A DNA stretch of 64,000 nt from Candidatus Burarchaeum sp. (GCA_030646255.1 JAUSNF010000021.1:9340-73339), one strand, 5' to 3'. Positions 691 through 15,714 are shown, numbered from the stretch's first letter. Made by a program: numbers and translations. Notes: generated by a model from the letters alone, not told the origin.

Positions 691-1320
691 CTACTTTTCC
701 CAAAGCGGTATGACGCTAGTTTTGCCCTCTATTATTTTGAAGTAGGAATCATCCCCAATGCTGAACTTCCTGTTCACTGCCCAGGCTACGAAATCAACGG
801 CCTGCAGCGCCCTATCTTCATATCCATGCAGGCCTTTTATCTGAAGCCCCTTTTGCGGGAAGGCCTCCTTGAATTTGCCGCATACGTATTCCTCAAACTC
901 CCTGCTCAGCAGCCTGTTGGTTTCCCGCTTTTCATAAACGATCGAAACCTCAGCGCACTCTTCTATCTCCATGGTCTGCAGCAGTATTCCTGCAATGTAG
1001 CTGTAAAGCCTGACTTTTTTATCGTATAACTCTGGGCGTATTTTCTGTTTGTCCACCACTATTGTGGCCAGCCTGCAGTCCATCTCGTTTATGGCCTTAA
1101 GGACATAGCGCCTTATTTCCTCATCTGAATTGTTCGCCTTTATCTGCGGAAGGCTGGAAAGCCTCTTGTTCAGCCGCCGCTCCCGTATTCTTTTCATCTT
1201 GTTCTGTATTGGTTTCGGGTCTCCTGTAATTAGTGCGGATATGTTGAAGTATTTGCTTCCGTGCGTTCCCAGGTCTCCACTTTCATCGACAAAAAGGTAT
1301 AGGCATATTGCATTCTCCAT
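691..1320 (-). CDS. DUF3800-family protein (defence/abortive-infection-associated)
   Basis: N-terminal LYLFVDESGDLG motif typical of DUF3800, ~210 aa, AT-richer than flanks. Confidence 0.6.
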   Translation of the reverse strand: MENAICLYLFVDESGDLGTHGSKYFNISALITGDPKPIQNKMKRIRERRLNKRLSSLPQIKANNSDEEIRRYVLKAINEMDCRLATIVVDKQKIRPELYDKKVRLYSYIAGILLQTMEIEECAEVSIVYEKRETNRLLSREFEEYVCGKFKEAFPQKGLQIKGLHGYEDRALQAVDFVAWAVNRKFSIGDDSYFKIIEGKTSVIPLWEK

Positions 1321-1363
1321 AGTAGCGCCATAAATGAACCTTTTGCCGAAGCTTATAAACCAC

Positions 1364-1401
1364 CCGAGACCGGGGAGCGGGTGACTTCCTTACTTCTCCC
1401 C
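1364..1401. repeat. Direct repeat copy A (core GGGGAGCGGGTGACTTCC)
   Basis: 16-bp identical core plus similar flanks with copy at 2841-2879. Confidence 0.5.
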
Positions 1402-1465: not shown

Positions 1466-1693
1466 ATGAAGAACCTCGGGCTTACAGCCGTAATCTGGAA
1501 GGAAGGAAAGCACTACGTTTCGCTCTGCCCGCAGCTCGATGTTTCGAGCTTCGGCTCCACAAAGGCCGAAGCCATCGAGAACCTCAAGGAAGCGGCATCC
1601 CTTTATCTTGAGTCGGCAAAGCAGGTGAAGCTTCCCCTGCCTGCCAGCGTAGTTTACAAGAAATTCGTGCTGCCTCTTAAACTGGCTCAATAG
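1466..1693 (+). CDS. hicB: HicB-like (UPF0150) antitoxin, short form
   Basis: 75 aa; motif ...KEGKHYVSLCPQLD...GSTKAEAIENLKEAASLYLE matches the HicB N-domain; 10 bp upstream of hicA. Confidence 0.6.
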   Translation: MKNLGLTAVIWKEGKHYVSLCPQLDVSSFGSTKAEAIENLKEAASLYLESAKQVKLPLPASVVYKKFVLPLKLAQ

Positions 1694-1702
1694 GGCGGTC
1701 CC

Positions 1703-1936
1703 ATGGCCGGGCTGCGGAACATAACTTCGAAGCAGATGGTCGAGTTCCTGAAATCAAAGGGATTCTCGGAACTGCGCCAGAAGGGAAGCCATCTCTCGAT
1801 GTTTTCCCCTTCAACCAAGCACCTCACCGTAGTTCCCATGCACGGGACAAAAGAAATACCAATAGGCACAATTCTTTCAATTCTCCGCTCAGCGGGCTTG
1901 TCGCGAAAAGAGCTCGAGGAATTTTTAGGAAGATGA
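1703..1936 (+). CDS. hicA: HicA mRNA-interferase toxin
   Basis: 77 aa; KGSHLSMFSP...VPMHGTKEIPIGTILSILRSAGL matches the YcfA/HicA signature. Confidence 0.7.
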   Translation: MAGLRNITSKQMVEFLKSKGFSELRQKGSHLSMFSPSTKHLTVVPMHGTKEIPIGTILSILRSAGLSRKELEEFLGR

Positions 1937-2062
1937 TGCTAAGCGGCTCACCGCCCGATAGTTTCAAGCCGCGTTACCTTTCCTGCCCTTGCCTCTGCCT
2001 TAAGCTTGCGCAGTTCCGCCATCTCTGCCTTGCTGAGGGTTATCTCATGCACGAGCTCGCCC

Positions 2063-2134
2063 CTAATACTTCTGCCTATACGCCTTCTTTTTCTCAACGC
2101 GCTGGTACTTGGTCTGGAACTTCTTCTTGCTCAT
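2063..2134 (-). CDS. Micro-ORF copy 1, 23 aa basic peptide MSKKKFQTKYQRVEKKKAYRQKY
   Basis: Paralogue at 5792-5863; differences between copies are mostly synonymous or conservative; G-rich RBS-like GGGGGG about 8 nt upstream and an AT-rich box further upstream. Confidence 0.4.
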   Translation of the reverse strand: MSKKKFQTKYQRVEKKKAYRQKY

Positions 2135-2180
2135 GCGAATCCCCCCATGCCTATTCTCTGCCGCATCTTCTATTATATCA

Positions 2181-2444
2181 CTATATGCCCGTCCACTCCT
2201 CATAATCTTTATGCGTGCCTATGAAAACAAGTGTTCTTACTGCGGCATCCTTGTCCTCGTGATAGCAGAGTCGGTACTGACCGATTTCGCAAACGCAGAT
2301 TGGAAGCCCCTGCTTCAGGTGCCTTGCAGAAATGCCGCCCGCAAGCTGCTCTATCTTCTTCATCACCCTCACTTTCATTCCCTTGTCTAGCTTCGAGAAA
2401 CAAGCGTCCCAGGCAGGATGGAACCATATCTCCCAGGCGCTCAT
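2181..2444 (-). CDS. RelE/ParE-superfamily toxin
   Basis: 87 aa; ...GQYRLCYHEDKDAAVRTLVFIGTHKDYEEW pattern; 4-nt overlap with the upstream antitoxin. Confidence 0.65.
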   Translation of the reverse strand: MSAWEIWFHPAWDACFSKLDKGMKVRVMKKIEQLAGGISARHLKQGLPICVCEIGQYRLCYHEDKDAAVRTLVFIGTHKDYEEWTGI

Positions 2445-2713
2445 TCAAAGGCCTCCGGGTATTTGCGCCTGACATCTGCCATTGTGAGTGCCTTCTTCTT
2501 TCCGCTCCTGAGCTCCTGCATCATGGCCTGCGCCTTTGCTGCAGCCAGCTCATCCATCACTTCCTCCCTGCTCTTTATCATGTGGTATTCCTTGCCTAGC
2601 GCGAGTATGCCCGCCCTTACTGCCTCATTCTTGGTCTTGAAAAAGCCGGCTTCCACTAGGTGCTTGAGCGTTTCTTCTACGGGACCTTCCAGCCTTACTA
2701 GTAATTCCGACAT
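2441..2713 (-). CDS. ParD/CopG-type ribbon-helix-helix antitoxin
   Basis: 90 aa; N-terminal LVRLEGPVEETLKHLVEAGFFKTKNEAVRAGILAL RHH-like; directly precedes the toxin. Confidence 0.55.
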   Translation of the reverse strand: MSELLVRLEGPVEETLKHLVEAGFFKTKNEAVRAGILALGKEYHMIKSREEVMDELAAAKAQAMMQELRSGKKKALTMADVRRKYPEAFE

Positions 2714-2840
2714 TTTACCACCTGTCTTAGTTATATATCAGATTGATATATAAACATATCACTTTGATATACCTGTTCAAGCTATGCATCATTCCTGCTT
2801 CCGCTCTCCTTCAAAGAATATTGGGCATTTAAAGCCTCGG

Positions 2841-2879
2841 AGAGTGGGGAGCGGGTGACTTGCCCTACCTTTTCTTTCC
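2841..2879. repeat. Direct repeat copy B (core GGGGAGCGGGTGACTTGCC), overlaps the Fic stop codon
   Basis: Matches 1364-1401. Confidence 0.5.
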
Positions 2880-3809
2880 AAGCATCCTCTTCAGTGCCTT
2901 ATACTCCTTCAGCAGCAGATTCAGCGTGGGCCTGAGGTCGTGCCCGTGCTCGTACTTCTGCAACGCCGCATAATACTCGCTCCTGTGCTTCATCTCAATG
3001 TTCACCGGCGGCAGGCCGTTCTTCAGCAGCATGTTGTTCAGCAAAAGCCTACCTACCCGGCCGTTACCGTCCTGGAACGGGTGAATGTTCTCGAACTGAT
3101 TGTGAATGACTGCAGCCAGCACGAGCGGAGGGTACCTGCGCCTGTTCTTGGAATACCAGCGCACCAGCTCGAACAGCAGGCTCCTGACCTGCGAGGAAGG
3201 CGCTCCCTGATGCACAATCCTGCGCGCGCCGTCCACCACCGCCACTTCAACGCCCGGCGGCCTGAGCTTGCCTGCAAAGGGCTTCGAGTTTCCGAAAACA
3301 AGCCTATGAAGCTCGAGGATGAGCGGCAGGGAGATATGCTCCTTGGTCTTCCTGATGAACGCAATCGCATTGGCGACCCCATAGGTTTCCGATATCTCCT
3401 CCTTCGGCTTGTCCGGCCAGTTGTCTTTTTCCAATATTTCTTCAACTTCCTTGTAGCTGACAGTGGAACCTTCGATGGCGTTGGTGTCATAGGCGAAGGA
3501 TTCGACGAATTTCTGCCAGTCTTCTTCTGACAGGTGCGCTATTCTGATTTCCCCCATCGCCTCGAGCGTGCGAAGCTCCTTCAGCTCTTGCGGTGAGAGA
3601 GCGGCTTCAAGCGGGTCCCGCATGCCTGCCTGCGCGCTGATTTTGGCCGTTAGCTTTGCTTCGGCCATGCGCTTAGCTTCCGCAAGCTCGTCGGGGCTGA
3701 GGTTCTCGCCGAGATAGATGCGGAGCTTCCTCACCTTGCCGCCCTTCCGGTACGAGTGTGCGAGATAGTATTTTTTCCCTCCCCTCAGTTTCCTAATTTC
3801 GACGTGCAT
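2865..3809 (-). CDS. fic: Fic/Doc-family protein (AMPylase-type)
   Basis: HPFQDGNGRVGR Fic motif, 314 aa. Confidence 0.85.
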   Translation of the reverse strand: MHVEIRKLRGGKKYYLAHSYRKGGKVRKLRIYLGENLSPDELAEAKRMAEAKLTAKISAQAGMRDPLEAALSPQELKELRTLEAMGEIRIAHLSEEDWQKFVESFAYDTNAIEGSTVSYKEVEEILEKDNWPDKPKEEISETYGVANAIAFIRKTKEHISLPLILELHRLVFGNSKPFAGKLRPPGVEVAVVDGARRIVHQGAPSSQVRSLLFELVRWYSKNRRRYPPLVLAAVIHNQFENIHPFQDGNGRVGRLLLNNMLLKNGLPPVNIEMKHRSEYYAALQKYEHGHDLRPTLNLLLKEYKALKRMLGKKR

Positions 3810-3816
3810 GATGCTA

Positions 3817-3932
3817 TTAGGTGACTACATTTTATAAACATTTGCATTTAGGTGACCACACTCACGTCGTAAGCGGGCCGGCTTTAGGTGACTACACATA
3901 CGTCGTAAGCAAGCGCGTTTGGGTGACTACAC
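3817..3932. repeat. Four iteron-like direct repeats T(T/A)(A/G)GGTGAC(T/C)ACA, spaced 32-36 bp, plus 2x CGTCGTAAGC
   Basis: Read directly at about 3817, 3848, 3884 and 3919; lies between the divergent fic start and the helicase gene. Confidence 0.7.
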
Positions 3933-4179
3933 ACGCACATTTTGACGCCTAAATGCGTGCCTAAAAAAACGGCGTGGATTTTACCACACATTTTTCCATT
4001 TCAATGTAAGCCAATACATCGCTCATTTCTTCCCCGCCGCGTCCCCTACGCCTTCCTCCCGCTGTCGTAACTCCACCGCCTTTTTAACAATTGACTTTCC
4101 ATACGCATCTGCGATCAGCAGGTGGGATATTGGTCGAGCGGTATGAAGAACCTAGCGTGATTTAGGGGATGGCTTCGTT

Positions 4180-5682
4180 ATGGGTAGTGCAGCAGCGTAT
4201 TCAACCAATTCATACTCTAGCGCGCCCAAATCCCTTTTGGAACGGCTCGAACCGCTAAACAAAAGAATTAGCGAGCGCATAGAAAGAGAGAGGCAAGAAG
4301 ATGTGCGCACACCCTTGGCCATGGGGCACTCCAGACGTGTTCACAAGACTAGAATAGTTAGGGACGTAATCGGGACAATGACGCAGTTTCCCCTGCGCCT
4401 CGGTTGGGCATTAACGATACACAAAAGCCAGGGCCTTACTTTGCGGCATGTGTGCCTGGATTTTGGCCATAAAGCTCCCTGGGCCCATGGGCAAACTTAT
4501 GTCGCACTGAGCAGATGCACTGGTTTAGACGGACTTTTTCTGAAGGCGCCCATCAGCGATTCCAATGTAATTGTTGATGATCGGATCCTTGATTTTCTCA
4601 ATGATGCCGGTTTGGGCGATTCTCCTGAACTGGACGGCAATTCAACCAGTTTTTATGCACCCCGTGCTTCTGAAACTAGCACGGGCAGCAAGGAAGAACT
4701 GCTTGAACTGCTGGAAACATCAAAAGACTCATTTTTCATAACGGGCCCTGCCGGAAGCGGCAAATCAACCCTAATCAGGGAATTCGTCAATAATACTGAG
4801 AAAAATTCAGTAATCGTGACGTTTACTGGAATAGCTGCCATCAATGTCGGAGGCCAGACTATCAATTCTTTCTTCAGAATCCCGCCTTTCAATTCCAAAA
4901 CTAGGGAGGCAAAGCCCCTTTCGAAAGAAGAGTGCGAGCTGTACCGGAGCATCGACATCATCCTGATAGATGAAATTTCAATGGTCCGCGCGGATTTATT
5001 TGATGAGATGGATGAACGGATGCGCGAGGCCAAACAAAATGACAGCCCATTTGGCGGAGTCCGCATGCTTCTTTTCGGTGACTATTACCAGCTGCCGCCA
5101 ATAGACGATGTTGGTGAAACCATTGCAAAAGGATACGGAACTGAGTATGCCTTCAGCTCCAATGCCTATCGTTCCATGAACATAAAAAATATAAAACTCC
5201 TGAAAATCCACCGCCAAAAAGAGGATTCCATTTTCTTGACGTGCCTTAATGCCATACGCACCGGAACCCGCAGAGAGCAGTTGAGCTCTGCGCTGGCTCA
5301 CATTAATGCCCGTTTCGGAGTAACACCGCAAGAAACTGCGGCCCGGTCGCTGGTAACTTTAACTACGACTAGGCAGCATGCAAAACAGATCAATGAAACA
5401 ATGCTGGGACAATTATCCGGTGAAGAATACCACTATTCTGCCACAGTAACTGGAAAGTTTCCGATTAAGGAAAATAGGATTCCTGCCGAGCTGGATTTAG
5501 TTCTAAAAGCGGGTGCGCGGGTAATTTTTACACAAAATGACCCGAATCATCAATGGGTGAATGGCAGCAGGGGAATAGTGACTAAGCTTACTGAAGATTC
5601 AATGAATATAAAATTAGACGACGGAACACTGGTTTCACCCAATCGTTTTCAATTTGAGATGTTCGAGCATAAGCTCGGTTAA
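4180..5682 (+). CDS. PIF1-like SF1B helicase, circularly permuted ORF
   Basis: Walker A GPAGSGKST, motif Ia GGQTINSFF, motif II ILIDEISMV and motif III LLFGDYYQLPPI at aa ~190-310, but the normally C-terminal motifs QFPLRLGWALTIHKSQG and GQTYVALSR sit at aa ~68-110; lower GC. Confidence 0.7.
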   Translation: MGSAAAYSTNSYSSAPKSLLERLEPLNKRISERIERERQEDVRTPLAMGHSRRVHKTRIVRDVIGTMTQFPLRLGWALTIHKSQGLTLRHVCLDFGHKAPWAHGQTYVALSRCTGLDGLFLKAPISDSNVIVDDRILDFLNDAGLGDSPELDGNSTSFYAPRASETSTGSKEELLELLETSKDSFFITGPAGSGKSTLIREFVNNTEKNSVIVTFTGIAAINVGGQTINSFFRIPPFNSKTREAKPLSKEECELYRSIDIILIDEISMVRADLFDEMDERMREAKQNDSPFGGVRMLLFGDYYQLPPIDDVGETIAKGYGTEYAFSSNAYRSMNIKNIKLLKIHRQKEDSIFLTCLNAIRTGTRREQLSSALAHINARFGVTPQETAARSLVTLTTTRQHAKQINETMLGQLSGEEYHYSATVTGKFPIKENRIPAELDLVLKAGARVIFTQNDPNHQWVNGSRGIVTKLTEDSMNIKLDDGTLVSPNRFQFEMFEHKLG

Positions 5683-5791
5683 ACTCGTCAGAGGCTGAAG
5701 CACCCTTAAAGCTACTTTCTAGCCGTACTGCTCCTTAATTCCTCCCAGTTGCATTCGCAGTTCCCACCAGCCAGCAGTCTGCCTTCCAATC

Positions 5792-5863
5792 CTAATACTT
5801 CTGCCTATATGCCTTCTTTTTTTCCAGGCGCTGGTATTTTGCCTGGAACTTCTTCTTGCTCAT
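5792..5863 (-). CDS. Micro-ORF copy 2, MSKKKFQAKYQRLEKKKAYRQKY
   Basis: Paralogue of 2063-2134; RBS-like AGGGG upstream; immediately downstream of mscL on the same strand. Confidence 0.4.
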   Translation of the reverse strand: MSKKKFQAKYQRLEKKKAYRQKY

Positions 5864-5992
5864 GCGTATCAACCCCTATCTTCTACGTCTTCTCTACTTT
5901 TTATCAACAATCCTTATCAAAAACGGTATCAGGATGTACAGCGTCGTGCTCCATGTGCTGCCCGCCATTGCAACCAAAATTGCACCTCTCCA

Positions 5993-6319
5993 TCACTTCT
6001 TTTTCTTCCCTGTCGCTTCCTCCTTCATAATCAACTTCACTATGGTGAAGACTACGAGCGCGATTATCATAAAGTCTATCAGCGCGCCCACGAAGTCGCC
6101 TATCATGAACTTTGCAGAACCTATCTGCAGGGTGGCCGTGCGCCAGTCTCCGCCAGGTATGAGCACGCCGATTATGGGCATTATAATGTCAGTCACAAGG
6201 GCAGTAACCATTTTGGTCGAGGCCGCGCCTATGACAAATGCAACTGCCAGTCCTATTACCTGATATTTCTTCAGGAACTCCGCAAATTCGGACAAAACGC
6301 TCATGCGACCACCATGCAT
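5993..6319 (-). CDS. mscL: Large-conductance mechanosensitive channel MscL
   Basis: ...FAEFLKKYQVIGLAVAFVIGAASTKMVTALVTDIIMPIIG... MscL signature, 108 aa. Confidence 0.8.
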   Translation of the reverse strand: MHGGRMSVLSEFAEFLKKYQVIGLAVAFVIGAASTKMVTALVTDIIMPIIGVLIPGGDWRTATLQIGSAKFMIGDFVGALIDFMIIALVVFTIVKLIMKEEATGKKKK

Positions 6320-6379
6320 GAGCTCGGAAAGCGGGTTTATAATTATTTATACTTTACTTGAAATGCATAGTCAGAAGAG

Positions 6380-7222
6380 GTGGTTGTCTTGAAGGGAATT
6401 TACTTATTCGCGTTGTTGGCCGTTTTCAGTCTTCTTATGGCAGGCTGCATTAACCTGCCGGGCCAGCAGGCTCAGCCAGCGCCTGAAAAGAATGCGCAGA
6501 CTGGCACCAACTTCGAGATCGAGCTCTACAAGGCGCAGGTGGACAAGGCAGCCCTGCAGGAGAAGTATGATGCTGCAACGGCAGACCTAAGGCAGTGCCT
6601 GGCAGACACGGCCGCATGCGAGGGCAAGCCCGCCGAGAAGTGCCCTGCACCTGAGAACTGCGATGCCATAAAGGCGGAAAGGGATTCTGCGCTTTCAAGG
6701 CTCTCAACCTGCATAGACGAGAAGGCCGCCATAGCCGGCTCGACGGGAACGTGCAATTCAGCTCTTTCAACGTGCCTTTCCGACAAGTCAGGTTTGACAA
6801 CCTCGCTTGCAACATGCACTGCGGACAAGAGCGCCCTGCAGCTTAGTCTAACTGCGGCGCAGAATGCAGTGCCGAACACTACGGTATGGCACTATGCACC
6901 CGGCAATTTAGGCGCTGAGGGCGGCACCGGCTACAGGACAACAGACTACAAGGTGCCCAGCAGCCTGAAGAAGGCGCTCATAGGGCTGGATTATTCAGGA
7001 GGCAGTGACGCGTTCTTCGGGCCAGGCGTAGTGTCCGGCCTAGTGAGGTGGTACACCATGACCTCGGTGGACGGCGTGCGCTTCAGCTCGGACATAGATG
7101 ACACTGTCGTTATCGACCTGTCCGTTGGCAATCCTCTGAAGGTGAAGACAGTCGAGTTCGCGGCAGGCACTTCAAAGGAGGGCTTTGCACTAAAACGCGT
7201 GATTGCAATTTACATCCAATGA
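6380..7222 (+). CDS. Putative secreted lipoprotein, Cys-rich with a coiled-coil
   Basis: Signal peptide followed by the LLMAGC lipobox-like motif; no recognisable domain. Confidence 0.4.
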   Translation: MVVLKGIYLFALLAVFSLLMAGCINLPGQQAQPAPEKNAQTGTNFEIELYKAQVDKAALQEKYDAATADLRQCLADTAACEGKPAEKCPAPENCDAIKAERDSALSRLSTCIDEKAAIAGSTGTCNSALSTCLSDKSGLTTSLATCTADKSALQLSLTAAQNAVPNTTVWHYAPGNLGAEGGTGYRTTDYKVPSSLKKALIGLDYSGGSDAFFGPGVVSGLVRWYTMTSVDGVRFSSDIDDTVVIDLSVGNPLKVKTVEFAAGTSKEGFALKRVIAIYIQ

Positions 7223-7327
7223 GCGCTTCCAGTCATTTGCGCGCAAGCTTCAGGCCTATGAATGCAAGAAGCGCCAGCACGATTAGCGCGCCCACTCACG
7301 TGCAGCTTGCAGTGCCTGCAGAAAATC

Positions 7328-8044
7328 CTATGCGCGCATTTCCCTGTGGCGCACAAACGCCGCACCGGCAATGAAAAGCAGCCCGAATGCCGGCAGGCAG
7401 CATACCGAGCCCCCGCCCTGGTCCTGCTCAATCTTCTGGAAAGCCTGCTTTAGCTCGTCCTTATTCTCCGCAGTATAATACTTGCCTCCGCCCGCAGCTG
7501 CAATCTGCTGGTGCTGCGCCTTGGCAGCCGGGTCATCGGCGAGCGAGTAGCTGATGACGTTTATCACTGCTATTCCCTCATCCGTAGTCTTCTGGGCCTC
7601 GAGCACCGGGTCCCCGCCGCAGTTCTCCTCGCCGTCAGTAAGCAGTATTATGGTACCCTTCCCGCCCATCTCGCTCTTCACGTACTCCCTTCCCTCTGCA
7701 ATCGCCTCTGCTATGGGCGTCCAGTCTCCGGTGCCTATGCCGTTTATAGAGCTTCTCAGCTCCTGCTTGTTCGAAGTGAGCTCCCTTATCACGCGTATGT
7801 CGCCTGTCTGCGGGTTCCCTCCGTCATCGCACGTGTGGAATTTCATGACGGCGAACTGGTCTCCCTGCGATGCATCTATGAAATCTATGGCCGCGGCCTT
7901 GGCCGCCTCCAGCTTCGTCTCCCCGCTGTCCAGGTAGTCGTCCATGCTGGTGCTGGCATCCATTATGACAAGGAAGGAGCCTGCCGATACTGTGGCTGCG
8001 AGAAGCAGCAAGAATAGTCCTGTTTTTGCAATATATCTTTTCAT
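7328..8044 (-). CDS. Secreted von Willebrand factor A domain protein with a C-terminal membrane anchor
   Basis: Signal peptide, MIDAS DASTSMDD, C-terminal LPAFGLLFIAGAAFVRHR PGF-CTERM-like tail. Confidence 0.7.
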   Translation of the reverse strand: MKRYIAKTGLFLLLLAATVSAGSFLVIMDASTSMDDYLDSGETKLEAAKAAAIDFIDASQGDQFAVMKFHTCDDGGNPQTGDIRVIRELTSNKQELRSSINGIGTGDWTPIAEAIAEGREYVKSEMGGKGTIILLTDGEENCGGDPVLEAQKTTDEGIAVINVISYSLADDPAAKAQHQQIAAAGGGKYYTAENKDELKQAFQKIEQDQGGGSVCCLPAFGLLFIAGAAFVRHREMRA

Positions 8045-8180
8045 ACAGTTGTAATTCTTGCTTCCTTTAAAAACCTAACTGCCACCGCCAACAATCGCGT
8101 GCAATTCTCGTGCCTGCCCGGGCAGTGATGCAAAACTATAAATAAGACTGCTTCCAACCCCTTTCCAGAGGTGTTTACCT

Positions 8181-8729
8181 ATGCCGCCAGTGAAGAAAAA
8201 ACCGATTCATTTCAAGCATCATGAAATTTACACAGGCCCGCGCTCCGGCACGGACATAGATTACTCTCACTACTATTCTAGCGCAGGCACGAATGTGCAC
8301 TTCCTTGTGGCTGTGTTCATAGGCGCGCTGGTCTATTCCGTAATTTCATTCATCGTGCACATGGCGGGCGCAATTGCCGACATGGGCTATTACTTCATGC
8401 CAGACTATTTCAGCGTGTGGAGCAAGCTCATGATGCCTGTTGCAGGCCCGCCGCCAATTGAGTTCACCTATGCCTCACTGCTCTTCGGCTTCATAGCCGG
8501 CTTGCTCTTCACCTACTGCTTCTATCTAGTAAGGAACTCAATGCCGGGCAAGGGCATTGCAAAGGGGCTGAACTACGGAATGTTCGTAATGCTCCTGGCA
8601 GGCCTGCCCTTCTACATGACAATGACTCTGCTCATCAACCTGCCGCAGGGCCTGATGCTCTCGTGGCTCGTGCAGACATTCATAATCTACGAGCTGTCGG
8701 GCATTGCAGTTGCAAAGCTGGTGCGCTGA
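8181..8729 (+). CDS. Hypothetical multi-pass membrane protein
   Basis: Four or five hydrophobic segments. Confidence 0.35.
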   Translation: MPPVKKKPIHFKHHEIYTGPRSGTDIDYSHYYSSAGTNVHFLVAVFIGALVYSVISFIVHMAGAIADMGYYFMPDYFSVWSKLMMPVAGPPPIEFTYASLLFGFIAGLLFTYCFYLVRNSMPGKGIAKGLNYGMFVMLLAGLPFYMTMTLLINLPQGLMLSWLVQTFIIYELSGIAVAKLVR

Positions 8730-9032
8730 GCTGGCGTACAGATGTGAACGCATGGACAAGCGCCTGATGGCAAAGCTCAAGTTTGCACTTCTTGTGCTAG
8801 CCGAGCTAGCGGGCCTTGTCTTTATCTTCCTCAGCAGGGAAAAAGTCAACCTCATGTTCATGTCGGACTATGGGTCTATTTTTGCAATGATCGTTTTTGC
8901 TACGTTCTGCACATCTTTTGAGCTGAGGCTCCTGGAAGAGATGAAGCAGGCCTAGCACCAGCGCTTTTTCAGGCGGCAGGCTCGGCATTAGATATAAATA
9001 CCCCCTCAGGCCAAAACTGGGCAGGCGATCGG

Positions 9033-12000
9033 TTGGTTTTCATAAAGGAATTGTCACTGCGGAACTTCAAATCATTCAAGAGCGTCGACATTAAGCTCAG
9101 CCCCGGCCTTATCTGCCTGGCAGGCCCGAATGGCTCTGGGAAGTCGAACGTTACTGACGCCGTGCGCTTTGCGCTGGGCGAGATGAGCCTGAAGCAGCTC
9201 AGGCCTGAGGGCAAGAAGGCGAGCGGCCTGATTAGGCGGGGCTCGAGCCATGCTGTCGTAGGCGTGGTTTTCGGCGGGGAAGCGGGACTGGAAATAAAGC
9301 GGGCCATACGTGAAGATGGCAAGATGGCCTACAGGCTTGATGGCAAGCGGGCTACGAGAACATCAGTAGTTGAGAGCCTGCGCAAGGTGGGCGCAGAGGT
9401 GGGCGAACACAACGTCATCGCGCAGGGCGAGGTTGACCGAGTAGTGAAGATGAATGCGAAAGAAAGGCGCGAAATTATCGACCGCGCTTCGGGAGTTTAC
9501 GAGTTTGAGGAGAAGAAAAAGGAGGCGCTTTCAGAACTCAACAAAGTAGAGAGCCGCATAAGCGAGGCCAACATTGCGATAGGTGAGCGCGAGGGCGTGC
9601 TCTCGGAGCTCGAGAAGCAGAAGGACGAGGCCCTGCGTTATGCGGAGCTGAGCAAGGAGCTCAAGCGCGCCAAAGGTACGCTCATACATGCGGAAATGAT
9701 TAGGCTTGAAAAAGAGTTTGAGGGCAGTGCCAAGAAGGCTGCAGATTTGCAGGCCAAGTTTGATGCATTGCAGCATGAGCTCGAGGGGCTTGAGGCTAAA
9801 TTGGAAGGGCTTGAGAGCGAGCGCTCCAAAATAGCGAGCATCATAAATGAGCAGGCAGGCAAGGAAGGCCTGCGCGAGGAGCTTGAAAGGCTGCGCACTG
9901 AGATTGAGAGCAACTCGCGGCTGAGGGTTGAGAAGGAAAGGCAGGTCGGCGAGCTGCGCAAGTCCATAGCTGCGCAGGATGTCGAGCTCAAATCATTCGA
10001 GACAAAAATGGTCAATGCTCTCAAGGAAGCAGGAGAGTCAGAGAAGCAGGCCAAGGCTTTGGCAGGCGAGATAGCTGCGGGTGAGAAGGAAAGGTCCCAC
10101 GTTTTGTCAGGCGCTGGAGGCAAGCGCGCAGCAGAGCTGCGCAAGCGCCACTCAGAGCTGCTCAGGCAGATGGAGGAGAAGAAGGGCGCCGCGCTCGAGT
10201 CTGAGTCTGCTGCTGTACGCGATTCTGAAATTGCAAAGCTCAAGGAAGAGGAGCTCGCGCTAATAGCCGGCGAGCTGGGCGAGGGAAATGGGCGGGCGGC
10301 TGAGCTTGAGTCGCAGCTCGGGGAGCTGAACGGAAAGCTTGCAATATTTGCAAAAGAGGAGGATGACATTTTCGAGCGCGAGAAGGAAATCAACAAGCGG
10401 CTGCCGGACTATGACCGCAGGATACTTGAGATTGGGAACAAACTGCCTGAAATGAGAATGGTGAGCGGCAAAAGGCCTGCAGTGGATGCAGTGATAAGCG
10501 CTTCAAAGGCAGGCCAGCTCGAGGGCATTGTAGGTACTGTTTCAGACTCCTGCACATTCGAAGAGAAATACGCGCTTGCGATTGAGGCGAGCGCAGGCCC
10601 AAGACTTCACTATATACTAACTGAAGATGCCGATGCAGCAATGGATGCTATTGAGCACCTGAAGAAGACTAAAGCGGGCAGGTGCTCGTTCATACCTCTC
10701 GACCGCAAGATTTCAAACCTGCCGCCCGAGGCCATGCAGTTCGAGAAGTCGCAGGGCGTGCTAGGTTTTCTCATCAACCTGGTTCAGTTCGACAAGAGGC
10801 ACCTGAACGCGCTCCACTATGTCTTCGGCGACACGTTGCTGGTAAAGGACTCGGAAACTGCAAAGCGGCTTACGGGCAAGGTGCGCACGGTCACGATGGA
10901 CGGCGAGCTCTTCGAAAGGTCAGGAATAATCACGGGCGGCCCCTTCGGTTCAGGCTCCTCGCTCAAGAGCAGGATCGAGCTCGAAAGGCTTGAAAAGCAG
11001 ATGGATGAGGTGCAGACGGCGAAGAAGGCCGCGCTCGCGGAGCTCTATTCCTCGCGTGATTCGCTGGGCCAGCGGAGAAGGGAAAAGTCAGGGCTTGAGG
11101 TCAAGGCGCGCGGGCTTGAGATTGAGCTCGAGGGCATGCGCGTGCAGGGCGAGAGGAAGAAGGGACTGGTGCAGAAGCGCTCACAGTTTGAAAATGACTT
11201 GCAGAATTTGAAGTCCGCCATCACAGAAAACCAGAAGACTGCGGGCGAGTTCCGGGAAGCGCTTTCGCGCATAGAGTCCGAGCTTGCATCAATCTCAAAA
11301 ATGCTTGATAGCCAGGAAGTGCCTGAGGAAAAGGCAGAGGAGCTCGCACTAATAGAGGGCAAGATAACTGAGCTGGGCGACAAGAGGCGCGGGCTCGACA
11401 ATCTGGCTTCATCCAAGAAGGCCGAAGTGAAGATGCTCGAGGAGAATATGGCGAAGGGCGAGGGTGAGCTCGAGGTTGCGAGAGCCTCGCTCAAGGAACT
11501 GCTTGGTGCAATCGAGCAGATGCGGAAGATTGTTGAGGCTGATGGCGGGCTTCTGAAGGAAAAGGAAGAAAAGATGAAGGAGGCGAGCTCCAAGATGGCC
11601 TCGCTCTACGAGCAGCAGACGAAGATGGGCGCCGAGGTTGAGAAATATTCTAAGGAAAAGGGCAAGGCGCAGTTCAACTTCACGCGGGTATCAAACGAGC
11701 TGGTCGAGATGAAGTCTACCAGGCAGATGCATGAGATGCGGCTGGGCGATTTGAAGGCCGAGTGGGCGGAGTACAAGGAAATCGAGACCATGCAGCTCTC
11801 GAAAGATGAGCTTGAGGACAGGATGAAACAGGTTGAAGGCGAGCTCAACGCCATGGGCATGGTCAACATGCTGGCGCCCGAGCAGTACGAGCAGAAGAGC
11901 GCTGAGCTGAAGGAGAAGAAGGAGATTATCGGGAAGCTTAGCGAGGAGAAGAAGGCCGTGCTGAGCATGATTGAGGAGATTGACAGCAGGAAAGCAGAAA

Positions 12001-12473
12001 TATTCCTGCAGACATTCAGGGCTGTGGATGAGAACTTCCGCAAGATATTTAATTACGCTTTGCCCGGCGAGGGCATGCTGCTGCTGGACAATCCTGACGA
12101 CATTTTCGACAGCGGGCTGCAGATAAAGGTAAGGGTGGACGGCAAGGACCACTACATAGAGGCCAAGTCTGGCGGTGAGCGATCACTTCTCGCACTCCTC
12201 TTTGTATTCGCCCTTCATTCTACAAGGCCCTCTTCATTCTACGTGCTGGACGAGGCGGATGCCGCGCTAGACAAGGAGAACAGCAAGAAGCTCGCGGACA
12301 TGCTCAAGCAGCTCTCGAAGAAGGCGCAGTTCATAGTAGTCACGCACAATGATACCGTGCTTTCTGCGGCAGACATCGCGCTCGGCGTGACAAGGCAGGA
12401 CGGGGTTTCAAAAATAGTCGGAATAGAGTTCAAGAAAATGGCGACAGCCTCGGCTTCAGCCCCGGCGGGCTGA
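9033..12473 (+). CDS. smc: SMC chromosome segregation ATPase
   Basis: Walker A GPNGSGKSN, long coiled coils, hinge, signature SGGERSL, Walker B LDEADAALD. Confidence 0.9.
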   Translation: MVFIKELSLRNFKSFKSVDIKLSPGLICLAGPNGSGKSNVTDAVRFALGEMSLKQLRPEGKKASGLIRRGSSHAVVGVVFGGEAGLEIKRAIREDGKMAYRLDGKRATRTSVVESLRKVGAEVGEHNVIAQGEVDRVVKMNAKERREIIDRASGVYEFEEKKKEALSELNKVESRISEANIAIGEREGVLSELEKQKDEALRYAELSKELKRAKGTLIHAEMIRLEKEFEGSAKKAADLQAKFDALQHELEGLEAKLEGLESERSKIASIINEQAGKEGLREELERLRTEIESNSRLRVEKERQVGELRKSIAAQDVELKSFETKMVNALKEAGESEKQAKALAGEIAAGEKERSHVLSGAGGKRAAELRKRHSELLRQMEEKKGAALESESAAVRDSEIAKLKEEELALIAGELGEGNGRAAELESQLGELNGKLAIFAKEEDDIFEREKEINKRLPDYDRRILEIGNKLPEMRMVSGKRPAVDAVISASKAGQLEGIVGTVSDSCTFEEKYALAIEASAGPRLHYILTEDADAAMDAIEHLKKTKAGRCSFIPLDRKISNLPPEAMQFEKSQGVLGFLINLVQFDKRHLNALHYVFGDTLLVKDSETAKRLTGKVRTVTMDGELFERSGIITGGPFGSGSSLKSRIELERLEKQMDEVQTAKKAALAELYSSRDSLGQRRREKSGLEVKARGLEIELEGMRVQGERKKGLVQKRSQFENDLQNLKSAITENQKTAGEFREALSRIESELASISKMLDSQEVPEEKAEELALIEGKITELGDKRRGLDNLASSKKAEVKMLEENMAKGEGELEVARASLKELLGAIEQMRKIVEADGGLLKEKEEKMKEASSKMASLYEQQTKMGAEVEKYSKEKGKAQFNFTRVSNELVEMKSTRQMHEMRLGDLKAEWAEYKEIETMQLSKDELEDRMKQVEGELNAMGMVNMLAPEQYEQKSAELKEKKEIIGKLSEEKKAVLSMIEEIDSRKAEIFLQTFRAVDENFRKIFNYALPGEGMLLLDNPDDIFDSGLQIKVRVDGKDHYIEAKSGGERSLLALLFVFALHSTRPSSFYVLDEADAALDKENSKKLADMLKQLSKKAQFIVVTHNDTVLSAADIALGVTRQDGVSKIVGIEFKKMATASASAPAG

Positions 12474-12475
12474 CG

Positions 12476-13516
12476 ATGATATATATGTACAAGAAAAGAC
12501 TGCAGAACTTTTTCACCAATTCAAAAGCAGACGCGCTCATCCTGCACAACGGCGATTCCGAGGGCTATTTTGACATCAACTACCGCTACTTCATGGGCCT
12601 TGAGTTCGACAACTCCATCCTGCTTGCGCGCCGCACTGGAAGCGCGATGCTGCTCTGCACCTCGCTGAACTATGATTATGCGCGCGAGAAGGCGCGCGTG
12701 CCAGTGGAAAAGATTGAGCGCAAGCTGCTGCCGCAGCAGCTCAAGAAATTCATGGCCAGCTGCAAGAGCATAGGCATAAACAAGCGCTCGCTGCGCCTCT
12801 CAACTTTTGAGGTTTTGAGAAAGGCAGGCAAGGGCAAAAAGTTTATGGATGTGAGCGAGGAGCTGGGCATGAATAGGGCTATGAAGGATGGCGAGGAGCT
12901 CGCGATAATGAAAAAGTGCATTACAAAAACGCGCGGCATTCTCGAATCCGTTGAAGTGCGCGCAGGCATGAAGGAAGAGGACATCCTGAAGAATTTGCGG
13001 GTGCAGGCGCTCGAGGCAGGCGCCGACATTTCCTTCCCGCCCATTGTGCTGAGCGGCCCGAAGGCCAGCATACCCCACGGCGTGACCGGTGGAAGAAGAA
13101 TAGGGGCCAATGAAGCTGTGCTTATAGACTTCGGACTGAAAATGAACGGCTACTGCTCAGACCTGACCAGGTGCTATTTCACGGGCGCGTGCAAGCAGGA
13201 GCGCTCTATTTATGAGAAACTACAGAATGTGCAGGAATCGCTGGCAGACTATGGCCACGCAGGCACGCGCATCTCTGAGTTTGTGAAAAAGTCCGACGCG
13301 CTCATTAGGCAGGCCGGCCTGCCCAAGCTGCCCCACTCAATCGGCCATGGTTTGGGCCTGTATGTGCATGAAGCTCCCTCGCTGTGCGCAGACTCCAAGA
13401 AGAAATTTGAGGCAGGCATGACATTGGCCATAGAGCCCAGCTACTACGGCAAGAAATTCGGCTTGCGCTACGAGAATGATTTTGTGGTAGGCGGAAAGAA
13501 ACTGCGGATGCTCTAG
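12476..13516 (+). CDS. M24-family Xaa-Pro peptidase
   Basis: PHSIGHGLGLYVHEAPS metal-binding motif. Confidence 0.8.
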   Translation: MIYMYKKRLQNFFTNSKADALILHNGDSEGYFDINYRYFMGLEFDNSILLARRTGSAMLLCTSLNYDYAREKARVPVEKIERKLLPQQLKKFMASCKSIGINKRSLRLSTFEVLRKAGKGKKFMDVSEELGMNRAMKDGEELAIMKKCITKTRGILESVEVRAGMKEEDILKNLRVQALEAGADISFPPIVLSGPKASIPHGVTGGRRIGANEAVLIDFGLKMNGYCSDLTRCYFTGACKQERSIYEKLQNVQESLADYGHAGTRISEFVKKSDALIRQAGLPKLPHSIGHGLGLYVHEAPSLCADSKKKFEAGMTLAIEPSYYGKKFGLRYENDFVVGGKKLRML

Positions 13517-13527
13517 CTGCAATCACT

Positions 13528-15714
13528 CTAGTCCAGGAAAGCTTCCGGCCTCGGAGGCTCCTTGGGCTCGCCCTTGCGCTCGCGCACCTGGTAGACAATC
13601 TTCTGCTGCAGCTCCTTGTTCAAAGGCTCGAAGCCTGCGTACTCAGTGTACCAGATTGCGCGGCCCTGCGTGGCGCCGCGGATGCTGTTCGAGAAGCCGA
13701 ACATTTCTGCAACAGGCACCTTGGCATTTACAGTCACAATCTCGCCTTCCTGCTCGATGTTCAGAACCTGCCCGCGCCTTCCCTGTATCTGGCTGATAAT
13801 CGCGCTCATGTAATCCTGCGGCGCCTGCACGAGCAGCTTCTGCTTGGGCTCGAGCAGCTGCACGCCTGCCAAAAGCATGGCAGCATAAATCGGGTTGCGC
13901 ACTGCCGGAATTACCTGCGCAGGCCCCCTGTGAACCGGGTCCTCGTGGATTTTCGCATCAACAACATAGACCATCATGCCCGTAACCTTCTCCTTTGCCA
14001 AGGGGCCTTTCATGCACGCTTCCTCAAATGCCTGTATGACGAGCTCCATAATCTCGTTTATGTACTGCACTCCCTTTGTCGCATCTATCAGTATGTTTGC
14101 GTTGAAAACGTCCGCAATGTTGCGCGCGTCCTCGCGCTCCATGCCAGCTGTGATGAACGGCTCCCAGAAGCCCTTGCCCTTCGGCTTCTTGTTCGGTATC
14201 GTCCCATCAGTAATTGCCTGCAGAAGCGTAGCGGGCATCGGCTCAACAGTCACCTTAATCTTGGTGTGCTTGTTGGGCGACTTGCCCTCAACAGGCCCTG
14301 CCGAGCCTATAATAGTCTCACGGTAAACGACAATCGGGGGCGAGGTCTCGATGGCCACGCCTTTCTCCTTCGTAATCTTGTACTCGATAATCTCAAGGTG
14401 CAGCTCGCCCATGCCAGAGAGCAGGTGCTCGCCGGTCTCCTGGTTGATTTCAACCCTGAGCGTCGGGTCTTCCTTCGCAAGCTGCCTCAGAATCTCAATG
14501 AGCTTCACAAGGTCCGAGGTATTCTTGGCCTCGATAGACTTGGTCACGACAGGCTCGGAATAATGCTTAATTTGCTCGAAAGGATCCATATCTCCCTCGC
14601 TTATGGTCTCGCCCACATACAAATCGTGCAGGCCTATAATCGCCACAATGTTGCCAGCAGGCACCTTTTCTACAAGCACGCGGTCAATGCCCATGTAAAC
14701 GCCAACCTGCTGCACCTTCTCGCTCACGTGCTTGGAGGCGAGCGTCAGCTCCGTTCCCTTTGTAACCGTGCCCGAGAATATGCGCGCAATGCCGACCTCG
14801 CCGGCATGCTCGTCAATAGTGACTCCGAAAATCACACCGCACACCTTGCCCTTTGCGTCAGCCGAGGTCATGCCCTTGCCGTACTCGCTCTGCAAATCTC
14901 CTTTCCAAAGAACTGGAATGCGGTACTTCTGCGCAGTCATCGGGTTGGGAAGGTGCGTAATCGCCATCTCGAGAATAACCTCGTCAATGGGCCCCTTTAC
15001 CATCAGCGTCTTGTGGTCCTGCTTCGAGCAGTAGTCGTAGATGGTCTTGAAGTTCAGCCCGCTGCGCTTCATGTGCGGCACGCTCACGGCCCACTTGTTG
15101 TATGCAGAGCCGAATGTCACATTGCCCTTCTCGGGCGAGATGAGCCACTCCTCCTTGTACTCGCCCGCATAATTCGTGATGAGCTTGTTCACGCCCGCAA
15201 TGATTTTCATGAGCTTTTCCTGCATTGCTTCGGGCGTGAGCTTAAGCTCGTTGATGAGCCTGTCAATCTTGTTGATGAAAAGAGTTGGCTTGGACTTTTC
15301 CTTGAGCGCCTGCCTCACCACCGTCTCGGTCTGCGGCATGATGCCCTCAACTGCGTCCACGACGAGAATTATGCCGTCGACAGCCCTCATCGCCCTCGTC
15401 ACGTGGCCTCCGAAGTCCACGTGCCCGGGCGTATCAATTAAATTAATCAAGTGCGGCTTGCCCTGGTAGTTGAAGCCCAGGGAAATGTTTGCCGCCTTAA
15501 TCGTGATGCCGCGCGCCTGCTCCTGCTCATCATAGTCAAGCACGCGCTGCTCGCCCGCAAGCTCCTTTGAGATGAGCCCTGCGCGGGCAACAAGAGAATC
15601 AGACATCGTGGTCTTGCCATGGTCGACGTGCGCCACAATCGCCATGTTGCGCACCTGCTCGAGGTTGCCCATGATGGACTGCACTTCATCGACAACATAT
15701 TCTTTTCGAACCAT
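13528..15714 (-). CDS. fusA: Elongation factor 2 (aEF-2)
   Basis: AHVDHGKTT G-domain, 728 aa, downstream of S7. Confidence 0.95.
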   Translation of the reverse strand: MVRKEYVVDEVQSIMGNLEQVRNMAIVAHVDHGKTTMSDSLVARAGLISKELAGEQRVLDYDEQEQARGITIKAANISLGFNYQGKPHLINLIDTPGHVDFGGHVTRAMRAVDGIILVVDAVEGIMPQTETVVRQALKEKSKPTLFINKIDRLINELKLTPEAMQEKLMKIIAGVNKLITNYAGEYKEEWLISPEKGNVTFGSAYNKWAVSVPHMKRSGLNFKTIYDYCSKQDHKTLMVKGPIDEVILEMAITHLPNPMTAQKYRIPVLWKGDLQSEYGKGMTSADAKGKVCGVIFGVTIDEHAGEVGIARIFSGTVTKGTELTLASKHVSEKVQQVGVYMGIDRVLVEKVPAGNIVAIIGLHDLYVGETISEGDMDPFEQIKHYSEPVVTKSIEAKNTSDLVKLIEILRQLAKEDPTLRVEINQETGEHLLSGMGELHLEIIEYKITKEKGVAIETSPPIVVYRETIIGSAGPVEGKSPNKHTKIKVTVEPMPATLLQAITDGTIPNKKPKGKGFWEPFITAGMEREDARNIADVFNANILIDATKGVQYINEIMELVIQAFEEACMKGPLAKEKVTGMMVYVVDAKIHEDPVHRGPAQVIPAVRNPIYAAMLLAGVQLLEPKQKLLVQAPQDYMSAIISQIQGRRGQVLNIEQEGEIVTVNAKVPVAEMFGFSNSIRGATQGRAIWYTEYAGFEPLNKELQQKIVYQVRERKGEPKEPPRPEAFLD

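Follow-up and report, generated by a model that had tools for sequence, protein, structure and literature searches.

We analysed a 64,000-nt window of the genome of Candidatus Burarchaeum sp., an uncultured DPANN member represented by a MAG. A repeat search of this window identified a direct repeat of 85 nt (2062-2146 and 5791-5875), whose copies are 88% identical and lie 3,729 nt apart. Each copy carries a micro-ORF of 23 codons plus a TAG stop on the minus strand, mu1 (2063..2134, peptide MSKKKFQTKYQRVEKKKAYRQKY) and mu2 (5792..5863, peptide MSKKKFQAKYQRLEKKKAYRQKY). The first-pass annotation had reported two copies of ~85 bp, and both translations proved to be exactly as given there. We found 7 nt differences between the two coding sequences, again in agreement with the earlier count: three codons change synonymously (AAG/AAA, GAG/GAA, GCG/GCA) and two conservatively (ACC/GCA, T8A; GTT/CTG, V13L). 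Three further differences in the 12 nt 5' of the ATG bring the total to 10 positions, and identical cores of 19 and 24 nt remain inside the repeat. Similarity stops 1 nt past the TAG, as had been stated for the stop-codon end, while the upstream limit was looser than described: when a 19-nt indel was allowed, a common motif, AGAAGATAG, appeared and the unit grew to about 25-45 nt upstream. The 60-nt flanks on either side of the repeat were 33% and 22% identical, which is the random level, and the absence of similarity beyond the ORF unit speaks against a plain segmental duplication. The chance expectation for the degenerate repeat pattern was 0 of 100 shuffles, and neither tblastn nor nhmmer detected a third copy within the window. 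In the public record mu2 is unannotated and mu1 is called as a 46-aa ORF.

Directly upstream of mu1 lies T1 (2181..2444, minus strand, 87 aa), a probable toxin of the RelE/ParE superfamily (Pfam ParE_toxin E=0.024, HigB_toxin E=0.15), which bears out the claim that copy 1 follows a relE-like toxin. T1 has a 4-nt overlap with A1 (2441..2713, minus strand, 90 aa), a probable ParD/RelB-like antitoxin (NCBIfam ParD E=0.0034, RelB-like E=0.012). The 46 nt from the T1 stop to the mu1 ATG (2135..2180, minus strand), which we call the type-1 leader, contain an AGAAGAT motif, a 19-nt insert, the G-run GGGGGG (GGAGG in L081) and the AT-rich stretch GATATAATAG. Immediately 3' of mu1 is the 3'-end remnant of an A2-type antitoxin (1945..2054, minus strand), beyond which HicB (1466-1693) and HicA (1703-1936) occupy 1466..1936 on the plus strand, convergent on mu1. 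The second copy is preceded by a type-2 leader, AGAAGATAGGGGTTGATACGC (5864..5893, minus strand). It had been placed after mscL (5993..6304, minus strand; 103 aa in the NCBI annotation); it actually comes after the 27 codons that remain of a TMEM175 gene (5894..5977, minus strand), a remnant that follows mscL and was left between mscL and mu2 by a 527-nt in-frame deletion.

The interval between the copies holds a D4 motif, AAGTCACCCGCTCCCC...TTTAAAT (2825..2861, minus strand; second copy at 1351-1387), a SoFic-like Fic-domain protein (2865..3809, minus strand; Pfam Fic 1.2e-18, PADLOC SoFic 1.8e-32), four iteron-like direct repeats of 18 nt with a TTTAGGTGACYACA core (3812..3931, spacing 31-36 nt, families D2 and D7), and a circularly permuted PIF1-family helicase ORF (4180..5682, plus strand) convergent on mu2. 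The copies thus bracket the Fic-iteron-helicase block, as originally described, together with A1/T1, which that description had omitted. The whole region is a toxin-antitoxin (TA)/defence island.

Homologue searches retrieved two more copies of mu, in the environmental assemblies L081 and L082, which come from other populations. Both encode the mu1 peptide, with three synonymous differences from mu1 in L081 and seven in L082. At sequence level, the peptide is thereby shown to be conserved in at least three environmental populations of one Candidatus Burarchaeum lineage. Searches of 185,579 species representatives, of 1.84 billion protein representatives and of the IMG/VR, plasmid and phage collections gave no homologue beyond this lineage; the distribution is very narrow, a single lineage. 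Likewise, relatives with a copy adjacent to mscL were confined to the same narrow lineage, and none of 80 mscL loci of other species had mu beside it. The peptide matched no known family in Pfam, NCBIfam or PADLOC, and gave no hit at E<=10 against Pfam, NCBIfam and PDB sequences.

We then compared the four independent sequences (mu1, mu2, L081 and L082), all from one narrow lineage, for signs of selection. The frame from ATG to TAG, 23 codons, is intact in all four. Variation affects 12 of the 69 coding positions; ten of the variable sites are synonymous at codon position 3, two fall at position 1 and none at position 2. At the amino-acid level nothing changes apart from the two conservative replacements in mu2, and among the open frames, only the minus-strand frame showed so few changes. 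With 10.4 synonymous and 58.6 non-synonymous sites, at least 10 synonymous changes out of 12 have a probability of 3e-7 under a site-count null and of 5e-4 under a transitions-only null. The mu sequences gave pS of 0.29-0.68 and pN of 0-0.034, and neighbouring genes pS of 0.20-0.33 with pN/pS of 0.03-0.16. The pS of mu (up to 0.68) is therefore at least that of neighbouring real genes, with pN at or near zero. The codon usage of the micro-ORF fits that of the genome. All four copies carry a G-run (GGAGG, GGGGG or GGGGT) 7-8 nt 5' of the ATG, which resembles a Shine-Dalgarno (SD) sequence; in this genome a 5-mer SD core lies ahead of 24% of confident genes, a 4-fold enrichment over the background of 6%. 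The earlier annotation had also given each copy its own AT-rich promoter-like box; the AT-rich stretch is there, though it is not conserved in the L082 copy.

Folding of both strands gave no structural signal (z between -1.2 and +0.6), and the sole Rfam match in the window was a tRNA, none falling on the micro-ORF; a structured non-coding RNA does not fit these results. Nor does the gene fit a leader peptide or regulatory upstream ORF: no downstream gene is conserved, and the sequence 3' of mu changes in every context (A2 remnant, convergent HicA, convergent helicase). From the synonymous-biased variation, the SD-like G-run and the lack of any RNA structure or family match, we therefore conclude that the repeat is almost certainly a genuine gene for a 23-residue micro-protein under purifying selection, as the first-pass annotation had proposed and as the L081 and L082 copies and the synonymous excess now support.

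We also considered whether the repeat might be non-coding DNA that is open by chance, such as an att or other recombination site or the result of plain segmental duplication, or else an assembly artefact. The direct repeats do flank a GC-poor block whose genes are of replication-like and addiction types, their 19- and 24-nt cores are identical, and contigs L082 and L087 end near a copy. However, a DNA site would keep all positions equally, and the pattern observed is strictly period-3 and synonymous-only (P about 3e-7). The flanks fall to random-level identity, the unit occurs in other contexts and other samples, the copies differ at 10 positions, and the context of copy 2 was recovered independently, with 100% identity, from a separate Logan assembly (contig L087). 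This explanation, already largely refuted, is highly improbable. In particular, and in line with the original note, the repeats do not fit the att sites or target-site duplications that mobile elements leave: they are coding, whole-gene units 12% diverged with codon periodicity and found in other contexts elsewhere, and the block has no integrase.

The start of the gene was examined with the same sequences. If the GenBank product of mu1 (MDO8339488.1, 46 aa) were correct, translation would begin at an upstream ATG that overlaps the end of T1; this ATG is in frame in both the window and L081 and was picked by gene callers. The 23-codon extension is missing at mu2, where an in-frame stop lies 7 codons upstream, and is replaced by unrelated sequence in L082. 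Between the window and L081 it shows three synonymous and two non-synonymous differences, against three and none in the core. No SD precedes the upstream ATG, whereas the G-run stands before the internal ATG in 4/4 copies. The longer product is thus very unlikely, and the start of the public 46-aa call at mu1 is probably wrong.

The peptide contains 8 K, 2 R, 1 E and 4 aromatic residues, so that 10 of its 23 residues are basic and not 9 as first counted, and it has a net charge of about +8.5 and a pI of 10.4. It is not amphipathic and has no hydrophobic stretch or transmembrane segment (GRAVY -2.1). Like type I toxin genes, mu encodes a small peptide where toxin-antitoxin genes abound. It differs in that the peptide is extremely hydrophilic and that no antisense RNA structure signal was found, and the peptide does not fit a hydrophobic, membrane-inserting toxin of this type. 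Among known proteins, Thermus Thx (bTHX, about 26 aa) and eL41 (25 aa) are very small polycationic peptides that bind the ribosome or nucleic acids. The micro-protein resembles them by composition, in length (23-27 aa), extreme Lys/Arg content and interspersed aromatics, and likewise has no hydrophobic core or amphipathic helix. It differs in that no sequence similarity was detected (neither PDB nor Pfam gave a match), in that its gene lies in a TA/defence island instead of among ribosomal genes, and in being duplicated and narrowly distributed, unlike a core ribosomal component. Judged from composition only, and with low confidence, the polycationic peptide may bind RNA, ribosomes or DNA.

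It is also conceivable that the act of translation or the mRNA itself matters and not the peptide, the ORF, with its many Lys and Gln codons, acting as a decoy for, or a sensor of, ribosome-dependent RelE-type mRNases, or else stabilising the operon transcript at its 3' end. AAR codons are frequent in the ORF, three CAG codons and the TAG stop do not vary, and it sits behind RelE/ParE-type toxins; RelE-family toxins favour such A-site codons. Yet CAG (85%), AAG (78%) and TAG (14/29 stops) are simply what this genome prefers, and Phe, Thr, Tyr, Arg, Val and Ala codons are also conserved in amino acid and variable synonymously. Together with the lack of a conserved downstream gene or RNA structure, this makes such a role very unlikely.

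Comparison of the contexts linked mu to two kinds of TA pair. The gene order is mscL-TMEM175-D4-A1-T1-mu in L081, which has the same A1/T1 pair and a type-1 leader identical at 43/46 positions, and TMEM175-D4-A2-T2-mu in L082. The type-2 leader of mu2 is homologous to the T2-mu junction of L082 (window 5894-5791 against L082 1392-1491, 85.6% identity), and the A2 remnant beside mu1 is 86% identical to L082 1010-1119. T1 and T2 have no detectable similarity. The junctions thus show mu1 to be of the T1-linked type and mu2 to carry the leader of the T2-linked type; mu2 now stands alone, to judge from its leader, after loss of A2/T2. The two copies are old paralogues on different cassettes and not a recent local duplication, and for this reason the word "duplicated" is misleading.

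Every mu copy lies 25-46 nt 3' of a co-oriented gene, which in three of the four contexts is a RelE/ParE-superfamily toxin, from two unrelated pairs (A1/T1 and A2/T2). We propose with moderate confidence that the micro-ORF would be expressed as the distal cistron of toxin-antitoxin operons. The micro-protein could be a dedicated third component that directly modulates toxin or antitoxin activity, for example as a neutralisation enhancer or anti-antitoxin. Tripartite type II systems include toxin-antitoxin-chaperone (TAC), PaaR-PaaA-ParE and PasABC; their known third components are regulators or chaperones of at least 70 aa and specific to their pair. A third small gene in the same orientation adjoining a RelE/ParE-family pair, within a TA/defence island, fits this scheme, and the fourth copy keeps a T2-type junction. 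A specific partner would be expected to co-vary, though, and we found an identical peptide behind the dissimilar T1 and T2 pairs; mu2 persists intact with no adjacent pair; in 1.3 Mb of DNA from related archaea, no mu-like ORF was found beside other TA loci; and no PADLOC, Pfam or NCBIfam model fits. We regard a dedicated third component as unlikely.

A somewhat stronger, still doubtful, alternative is that the micro-ORF is an unrelated resident chromosomal gene at the downstream edge of a hotspot for TA/defence cassettes (TMEM175...mu), its toxin adjacency having no functional meaning. TMEM175, the D4 motif and mu are common to L081 and L082 and the TA pairs between them are entirely different, the classic pattern of cassette replacement; the pS of mu between L081 and L082 (0.58, 6/10.3 sites) is statistically compatible with that of TMEM175 (0.33). 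Against this, one genome holds two copies with two leader types, and in L081 as in the window the T1-linked copy goes together with A1/T1. Outside the lineage, the nearest TMEM175 loci (L083 and L084, 75-78% identity) have no mu, and mu is therefore not an old fixed neighbour of TMEM175.

Compared with L081, the window contains one additional segment, 2861-5893, comprising mu2, the helicase, the iterons and Fic, and the D4 motif at 2825..2861 ends exactly at the left boundary of this block. The 3,729-nt period has a GC content of 0.500 against 0.547 +/- 0.015 for the core chromosome (minimum 0.514); in tetranucleotide usage the block does not stand out. Its junctions show microhomology only and no target-site duplication, and the genes between the copies are just A1/T1, Fic and the PIF1-like helicase, with no integrase or transposase. 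Some integrative elements recombine inside a short gene, classically at a tRNA-gene att site, and end up flanked by direct repeats of that gene. The window is alike in that a whole short gene, directly repeated, stands on both sides of a GC-poor block whose functions are replication-like and addiction-related, and differs in that the repeats are 12% diverged and protein-coding and no integrase is present; its junctions resemble homologous or illegitimate, not site-specific, recombination. We suggest with moderate confidence that a GC-poor unit of ~3.7 kb (PIF1-like helicase, iterons, SoFic-like Fic, A1/T1 and mu) was integrated or shuffled, and that recombination within the ~85-nt mu homology brought both copies together. 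The earlier idea that the copies acted as recombination substrates is consistent with the L081 comparison, which falls short of proof; informative synonymous sites revealed no crossover point inside mu. This model is not unique, as L081 could be ancestral and the 3-kb block inserted by another route. Given the circular permutation of its helicase, the block may be a "replicon" that no longer works, or may not have been one at any time.

The small proteome of Haloferax volcanii provides an example of sORF proteins overlooked in bacteria and archaea (PMC10117724). The micro-ORF shares with these its very short length, being missed or mis-started by automatic annotation, purifying selection, a ribosome-binding site and lineage restriction; it differs in lying at the extreme low end (23 aa), in belonging to a DPANN host with no experimental system, and in having two paralogues tied to mobile TA cassettes. 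Since one and the same peptide goes with toxin/antitoxin pairs that are unrelated, we suggest with low confidence that it targets a shared polyanionic host component (RNA/ribosome or DNA) more probably than the TA proteins; its action would resemble that of the very small basic peptides that bind ribosomes or nucleic acids. The explanation that we favour, with somewhat better than even confidence for the whole, is a real basic micro-protein gene that would be the distal cistron of TA operons and a place of recombination and whose product may have a polyanionic target. The mu gene would then also be a recombination handle in a cassette-rich TA/defence island.

The repeat is real: it forms one family of two 85-nt copies (2062-2146 and 5791-5875) that are 88% identical and lie 3,729 nt apart. 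In an in-register comparison similarity collapsed on both sides, the 60 nt beyond each end being 33% and 22% identical, which is the random level. On the minus strand both copies run from ATG to TAG over 23 codons (2063-2134 and 5792-5863, including the stop) and encode MSKKKFQTKYQRVEKKKAYRQKY (copy 1, mu1) and MSKKKFQAKYQRLEKKKAYRQKY (copy 2, mu2); no third copy of this micro-ORF (mu) was present in the 64-kb window. The seven coding differences listed in the first-pass annotation matched ours exactly. It had counted nine basic residues in the peptide, where there are ten, and had the similarity start a few nt upstream of the ATG and end exactly at the stop codon; it reaches 12 nt upstream of the ATG and 1 nt past the stop.

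Homologues of mu were found in two environmental assemblies, L081 and L082. Both encode a peptide identical to that of mu1, and the nucleotide differences from mu1 (three in L081, seven in L082) are all synonymous. Among the four mu sequences 12 of 69 coding positions vary: ten at codon position 3, all of them synonymous, two at position 1 and none at position 2. The two position-1 changes, T8A and V13L, are both in mu2. Even if one third of changes are expected to be synonymous, the probability of finding at least 10 of 12 is 5e-4, and with the actual site counts (10.4 synonymous versus 58.6 non-synonymous) it is 3e-7. Pairwise pS was 0.29-0.68 and pN 0-0.034. For calibration, neighbouring genes gave pS 0.20 and pN/pS 0.08 (A1, the antitoxin of the RelE/ParE-like pair A1/T1 upstream of mu1; window versus L081), 0.23 and 0.03 (HicA, window versus L081) and 0.33 and 0.16 (TMEM175, L081 versus L082), so constraint on mu is no weaker than on bona fide genes. 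Since its synonymous sites are near saturation, recent duplication and gene conversion are excluded as the source of the similarity between copies.

No second frame was both open and conserved across mu. Two plus-strand ORFs over the repeats (1933-2205 and 5749-6030) were rejected, as they show nine amino-acid differences in frame and occur in no protein collection. In RNA folding neither strand surpassed shuffled controls, and Rfam gave no match at the repeat. In every mu copy a G-run (GGAGG, GGGGGG or GGGGT) is located 7-8 nt before the ATG; a 5-mer Shine-Dalgarno-like (SD) core precedes 24% of confident genes in this genome against a 6% background. Codon usage of mu agrees with that of the genome. 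Judged from sequence, mu is very probably a genuine micro-protein gene, and the purifying selection proposed in the first-pass annotation is borne out by ten synonymous changes at 12 variable sites and the low pN.

In GenBank mu1 is part of a 46-aa hypothetical protein (MDO8339488.1, Q7T16_02415), whose called start, an ATG further upstream, overlaps the T1 end; mu2 is not annotated. The 23-codon N-terminal extension of this call is probably spurious, since it is missing at mu2, gives way to unrelated sequence in L082, shows three synonymous and two non-synonymous changes in the window-L081 comparison (three and none in the core), and has no SD before its ATG. The conserved start is the ATG of the 23-aa ORF.

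Further homologues were sought with back-translated degenerate DNA patterns, which allow conservative changes only and no indels, so that divergent relatives may escape. As a positive control, the full-length pattern recovered both window copies with 0 expected by chance. It had no match in 185,579 species-representative genomes and the degenerate pattern had one, L081, in the JGI metagenome collection, while N- and C-terminal patterns gave none in IMG/VR. With a tandem-peptide query two called ORFs containing the peptide were retrieved: P0002, which is the L081 copy, and P0001, which lies on the NCBI metagenome contig L082. These two were also the only returns of an index-free HMMER scan over 1.84 billion representative proteins. 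Two more contigs (L085, L086) were re-assemblies of the L081 population, leaving four independent mu sequences from three populations. The peptide had no match in Pfam, NCBIfam, PADLOC or PDB sequences, nor by tblastn in plasmid and phage collections, where the low-complexity filter may contribute. In 80 mscL loci (1.28 Mb) of Methanoregulaceae and DPANN relatives we found neither mu nor T1, A1, the different pair A2/T2 seen in L082, or a shared island motif, D4. Likewise, TMEM175 relatives of 75-78% identity (L083, from Ca. B. australiense, and L084) lacked mu and D4, and neither T1/A1 nor T2/A2 was found at the TMEM175 locus of Ca. B. australiense or at that of another relative; the plasmid and phage collections had none of mu, D4 and the two pairs. 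To the extent that these searches reach, mu is restricted to a single Burarchaeum lineage, with nucleotide identities of 86-94%. Our literature search found no account of mu or of a comparable toxin-antitoxin (TA)-attached polycationic micro-ORF; mu is a new family within a known kind, the overlooked small-ORF proteins.

With genes for aEF-2, RpoA', split RpoB'/B'', TopoVI-B and SMC, the window is chromosomal DNA of a DPANN archaeon of the class Micrarchaeia. Its first 9 kb form a TA/defence island beside core informational genes, containing DUF3800, HicB/HicA, A1/T1, a SoFic-like Fic protein, four iteron-like repeats, a PIF1-family helicase, a TMEM175 remnant and mscL. Window 2185-15682 recurs at 100% identity in a separate Logan assembly, L087, so the context of mu2 is no assembly artefact. 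In the window, the minus-strand order is mscL - TMEM175 remnant - mu2 - (convergent helicase) - iterons - Fic - D4 - A1 - T1 - mu1 - A2 remnant - (convergent HicA). The corresponding orders are mscL - TMEM175 - D4 - A1 - T1 - mu - (convergent HicA) in L081 and TMEM175 - D4 - A2 - T2 - mu in L082. Copy 1 thus follows a relE-like toxin, as had been noted from the sequence, in the order D4 - A1 - T1 - mu1; copy 2 had been placed directly after mscL but is instead preceded by the TMEM175 remnant. A2/T2 is a different pair from A1/T1: T2 matches ParE_toxin at 1.6e-7, and the BLASTP E value between T1 and T2 is 5.8.

A 46-nt leader is common to mu1 and the L081 copy (43/46 identical), and a shorter one, AGAAGATAG..GGGGTTGAT, to mu2 and the L082 copy; the same grouping is seen at synonymous sites 42 and 54. 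Gene orders, shared leaders and these two sites indicate that the window copies are two old paralogues, one of T1-linked and one of T2-linked type, and not a local duplication.

Several other features of the island were recorded. T1 (2181-2444, minus strand; L081 312-575) differs from its L081 counterpart by six non-synonymous changes and one synonymous change (pS 0.019, pN/pS 1.6), in contrast to the adjacent A1 with pS 0.20 and pN/pS 0.08; by this comparison T1 would be either under relaxed or diversifying selection or recently converted. D4 is a 37-nt motif, in minus orientation AAGTCACCCGCTCCCC...TTTATAA, ahead of DUF3800, A1 and A2 (window 1351-1387 and 2825-2861, L081 944-983, L082 725-758). 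Its end coincides with the boundary of the block missing in L081, and it resembles a promoter/operator module, or a cassette boundary, shared across the island. Upstream of A1 (2714-2790, minus strand) a perfect TTTATATA box lies between TATATCA...TGATATA palindromes that L081 conserves; box and palindromes are probably the autoregulatory operator of the A1/T1 operon, and a half-site resembling them, GTGATATAATAG, is found upstream of mu1. For the Fic protein (2865-3809, minus strand) the match is to SoFic, a single-gene defence family (PADLOC 1.8e-32), and for the DUF3800 protein (691-1320, minus strand) to a candidate defence family. The closest relatives of mscL (5993-6304, minus strand; 62-77% identity, loci L001-L080) come from DPANN (Micrarchaeota/Iainarchaeia) MAGs and from Methanoregulaceae, a split that might reflect horizontal transfer between DPANN archaea and methanogens, their possible hosts. 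Finally, two independent short-read contigs stop 0-40 nt from mu (the end of L082 at 1491 and the start of L087 at window 2185), which suggests that assemblies break at the repeat and that the L082 genome, too, may carry more than one mu copy.

Compared with L081, the window has an extra block at 2861-5893, comprising mu2 with its leader, the helicase, the iterons and Fic. An A2-type antitoxin 3'-end remnant (1945-2054, minus strand; about 110-119 nt, 86% to L082) lies directly downstream of mu1, showing that a second RelE/ParE cassette was once at that position. L081 and L082 have an intact TMEM175 (DUF1211) channel gene; in the window only a 27-codon ORF, LVAMAGSTWSTTLYILIPFLIRIVDKK (5894-5977, minus strand), is left of it after an in-frame loss of 527 nt between two imperfect 17-nt repeats, a loss that spared the original start region and last helix. 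Over the 3,729-nt period between mu1 and mu2 GC content is 0.500, lower than in any same-sized core-chromosome stretch (mean 0.547, sd 0.015, minimum 0.514), and tetranucleotide usage is unremarkable. The content of the period is replication-like (helicase, iterons), addiction (A1/T1) and defence-like (SoFic-like Fic). No integrase was found within it and no target-site duplication at the unit junctions, which show only microhomologies of 2-4 nt or 17 nt. In one reading, to which we give about one chance in four, an L081-like arrangement came first and the 3-kb block entered it by insertion. The simplest reading, to which we give about an even chance, is that a small circular element bearing A1-T1-mu recombined with a chromosomal mu. 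Such an event would leave the element between direct mu repeats, and L081 would be a decayed version retaining only D4-A1-T1-mu.

The helicase ORF (4180-5682, plus strand) is circularly permuted relative to solved PIF1 structures, with a single breakpoint: residues 173-497 align with residues 13-338 of 8bns_A and residues 58-141 with 346-428, so that the usual C-terminal motif region (TIHKSQG) is now at the N-terminus. Given this permutation, the unit, if a replicon at some time in the past, may have ceased to be one. No relatives of the helicase turned up in IMG/VR, nor DNA relatives of the bracketed block among plasmids.

The peptide has a mass of 3.0 kDa, a net charge of about +8.5, a pI of 10.4 and a GRAVY of -2.1, and its helical hydrophobic moment falls short of the shuffle mean; by these values it is neither a membrane peptide nor an amphipathic antimicrobial-type helix. 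A function of mu as a codon-rich toxin substrate is unsupported, and a special role for the invariant CAG and TAG codons was rejected, because CAG, AAG and TAG are the genome's preferred codons. Since the identical peptide occurs with two unrelated TA pairs and also survives alone, a shared polyanionic target (RNA/ribosome or DNA) seems more likely than specific toxin or antitoxin binding. An accessory role directed at the ribosome would be attractive, as RelE-type toxins act there. It is conceivable, as a distinctly speculative proposal, that mu serves two purposes, as a translated polycationic peptide on the ribosome or RNA that conditions the action of any co-resident RelE/ParE-type mRNA-interferase toxin and as a protein-coding docking sequence. 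In the latter role, small plasmids and TA cassettes would integrate and be exchanged at mu in DPANN genomes without a dedicated integrase.

To our knowledge the small proteome of DPANN archaea is essentially uncharted, and mu offers a clean, statistically solid example of a 23-codon gene missed or mis-started by standard pipelines. Its very narrow distribution so far limits its practical reach; a 3-kDa peptide is open to synthesis, so binding hypotheses are cheap to check though the organism cannot be grown. Noteworthy are its extreme shortness, strong constraint, DPANN host and possible double role as peptide gene and recombination handle. Its attachment to two unrelated RelE/ParE cassettes and its position flanking the 3.7-kb helicase/Fic/TA unit make mu a candidate for an accessory factor of archaeal TA/defence islands, or for a recombination handle in them.
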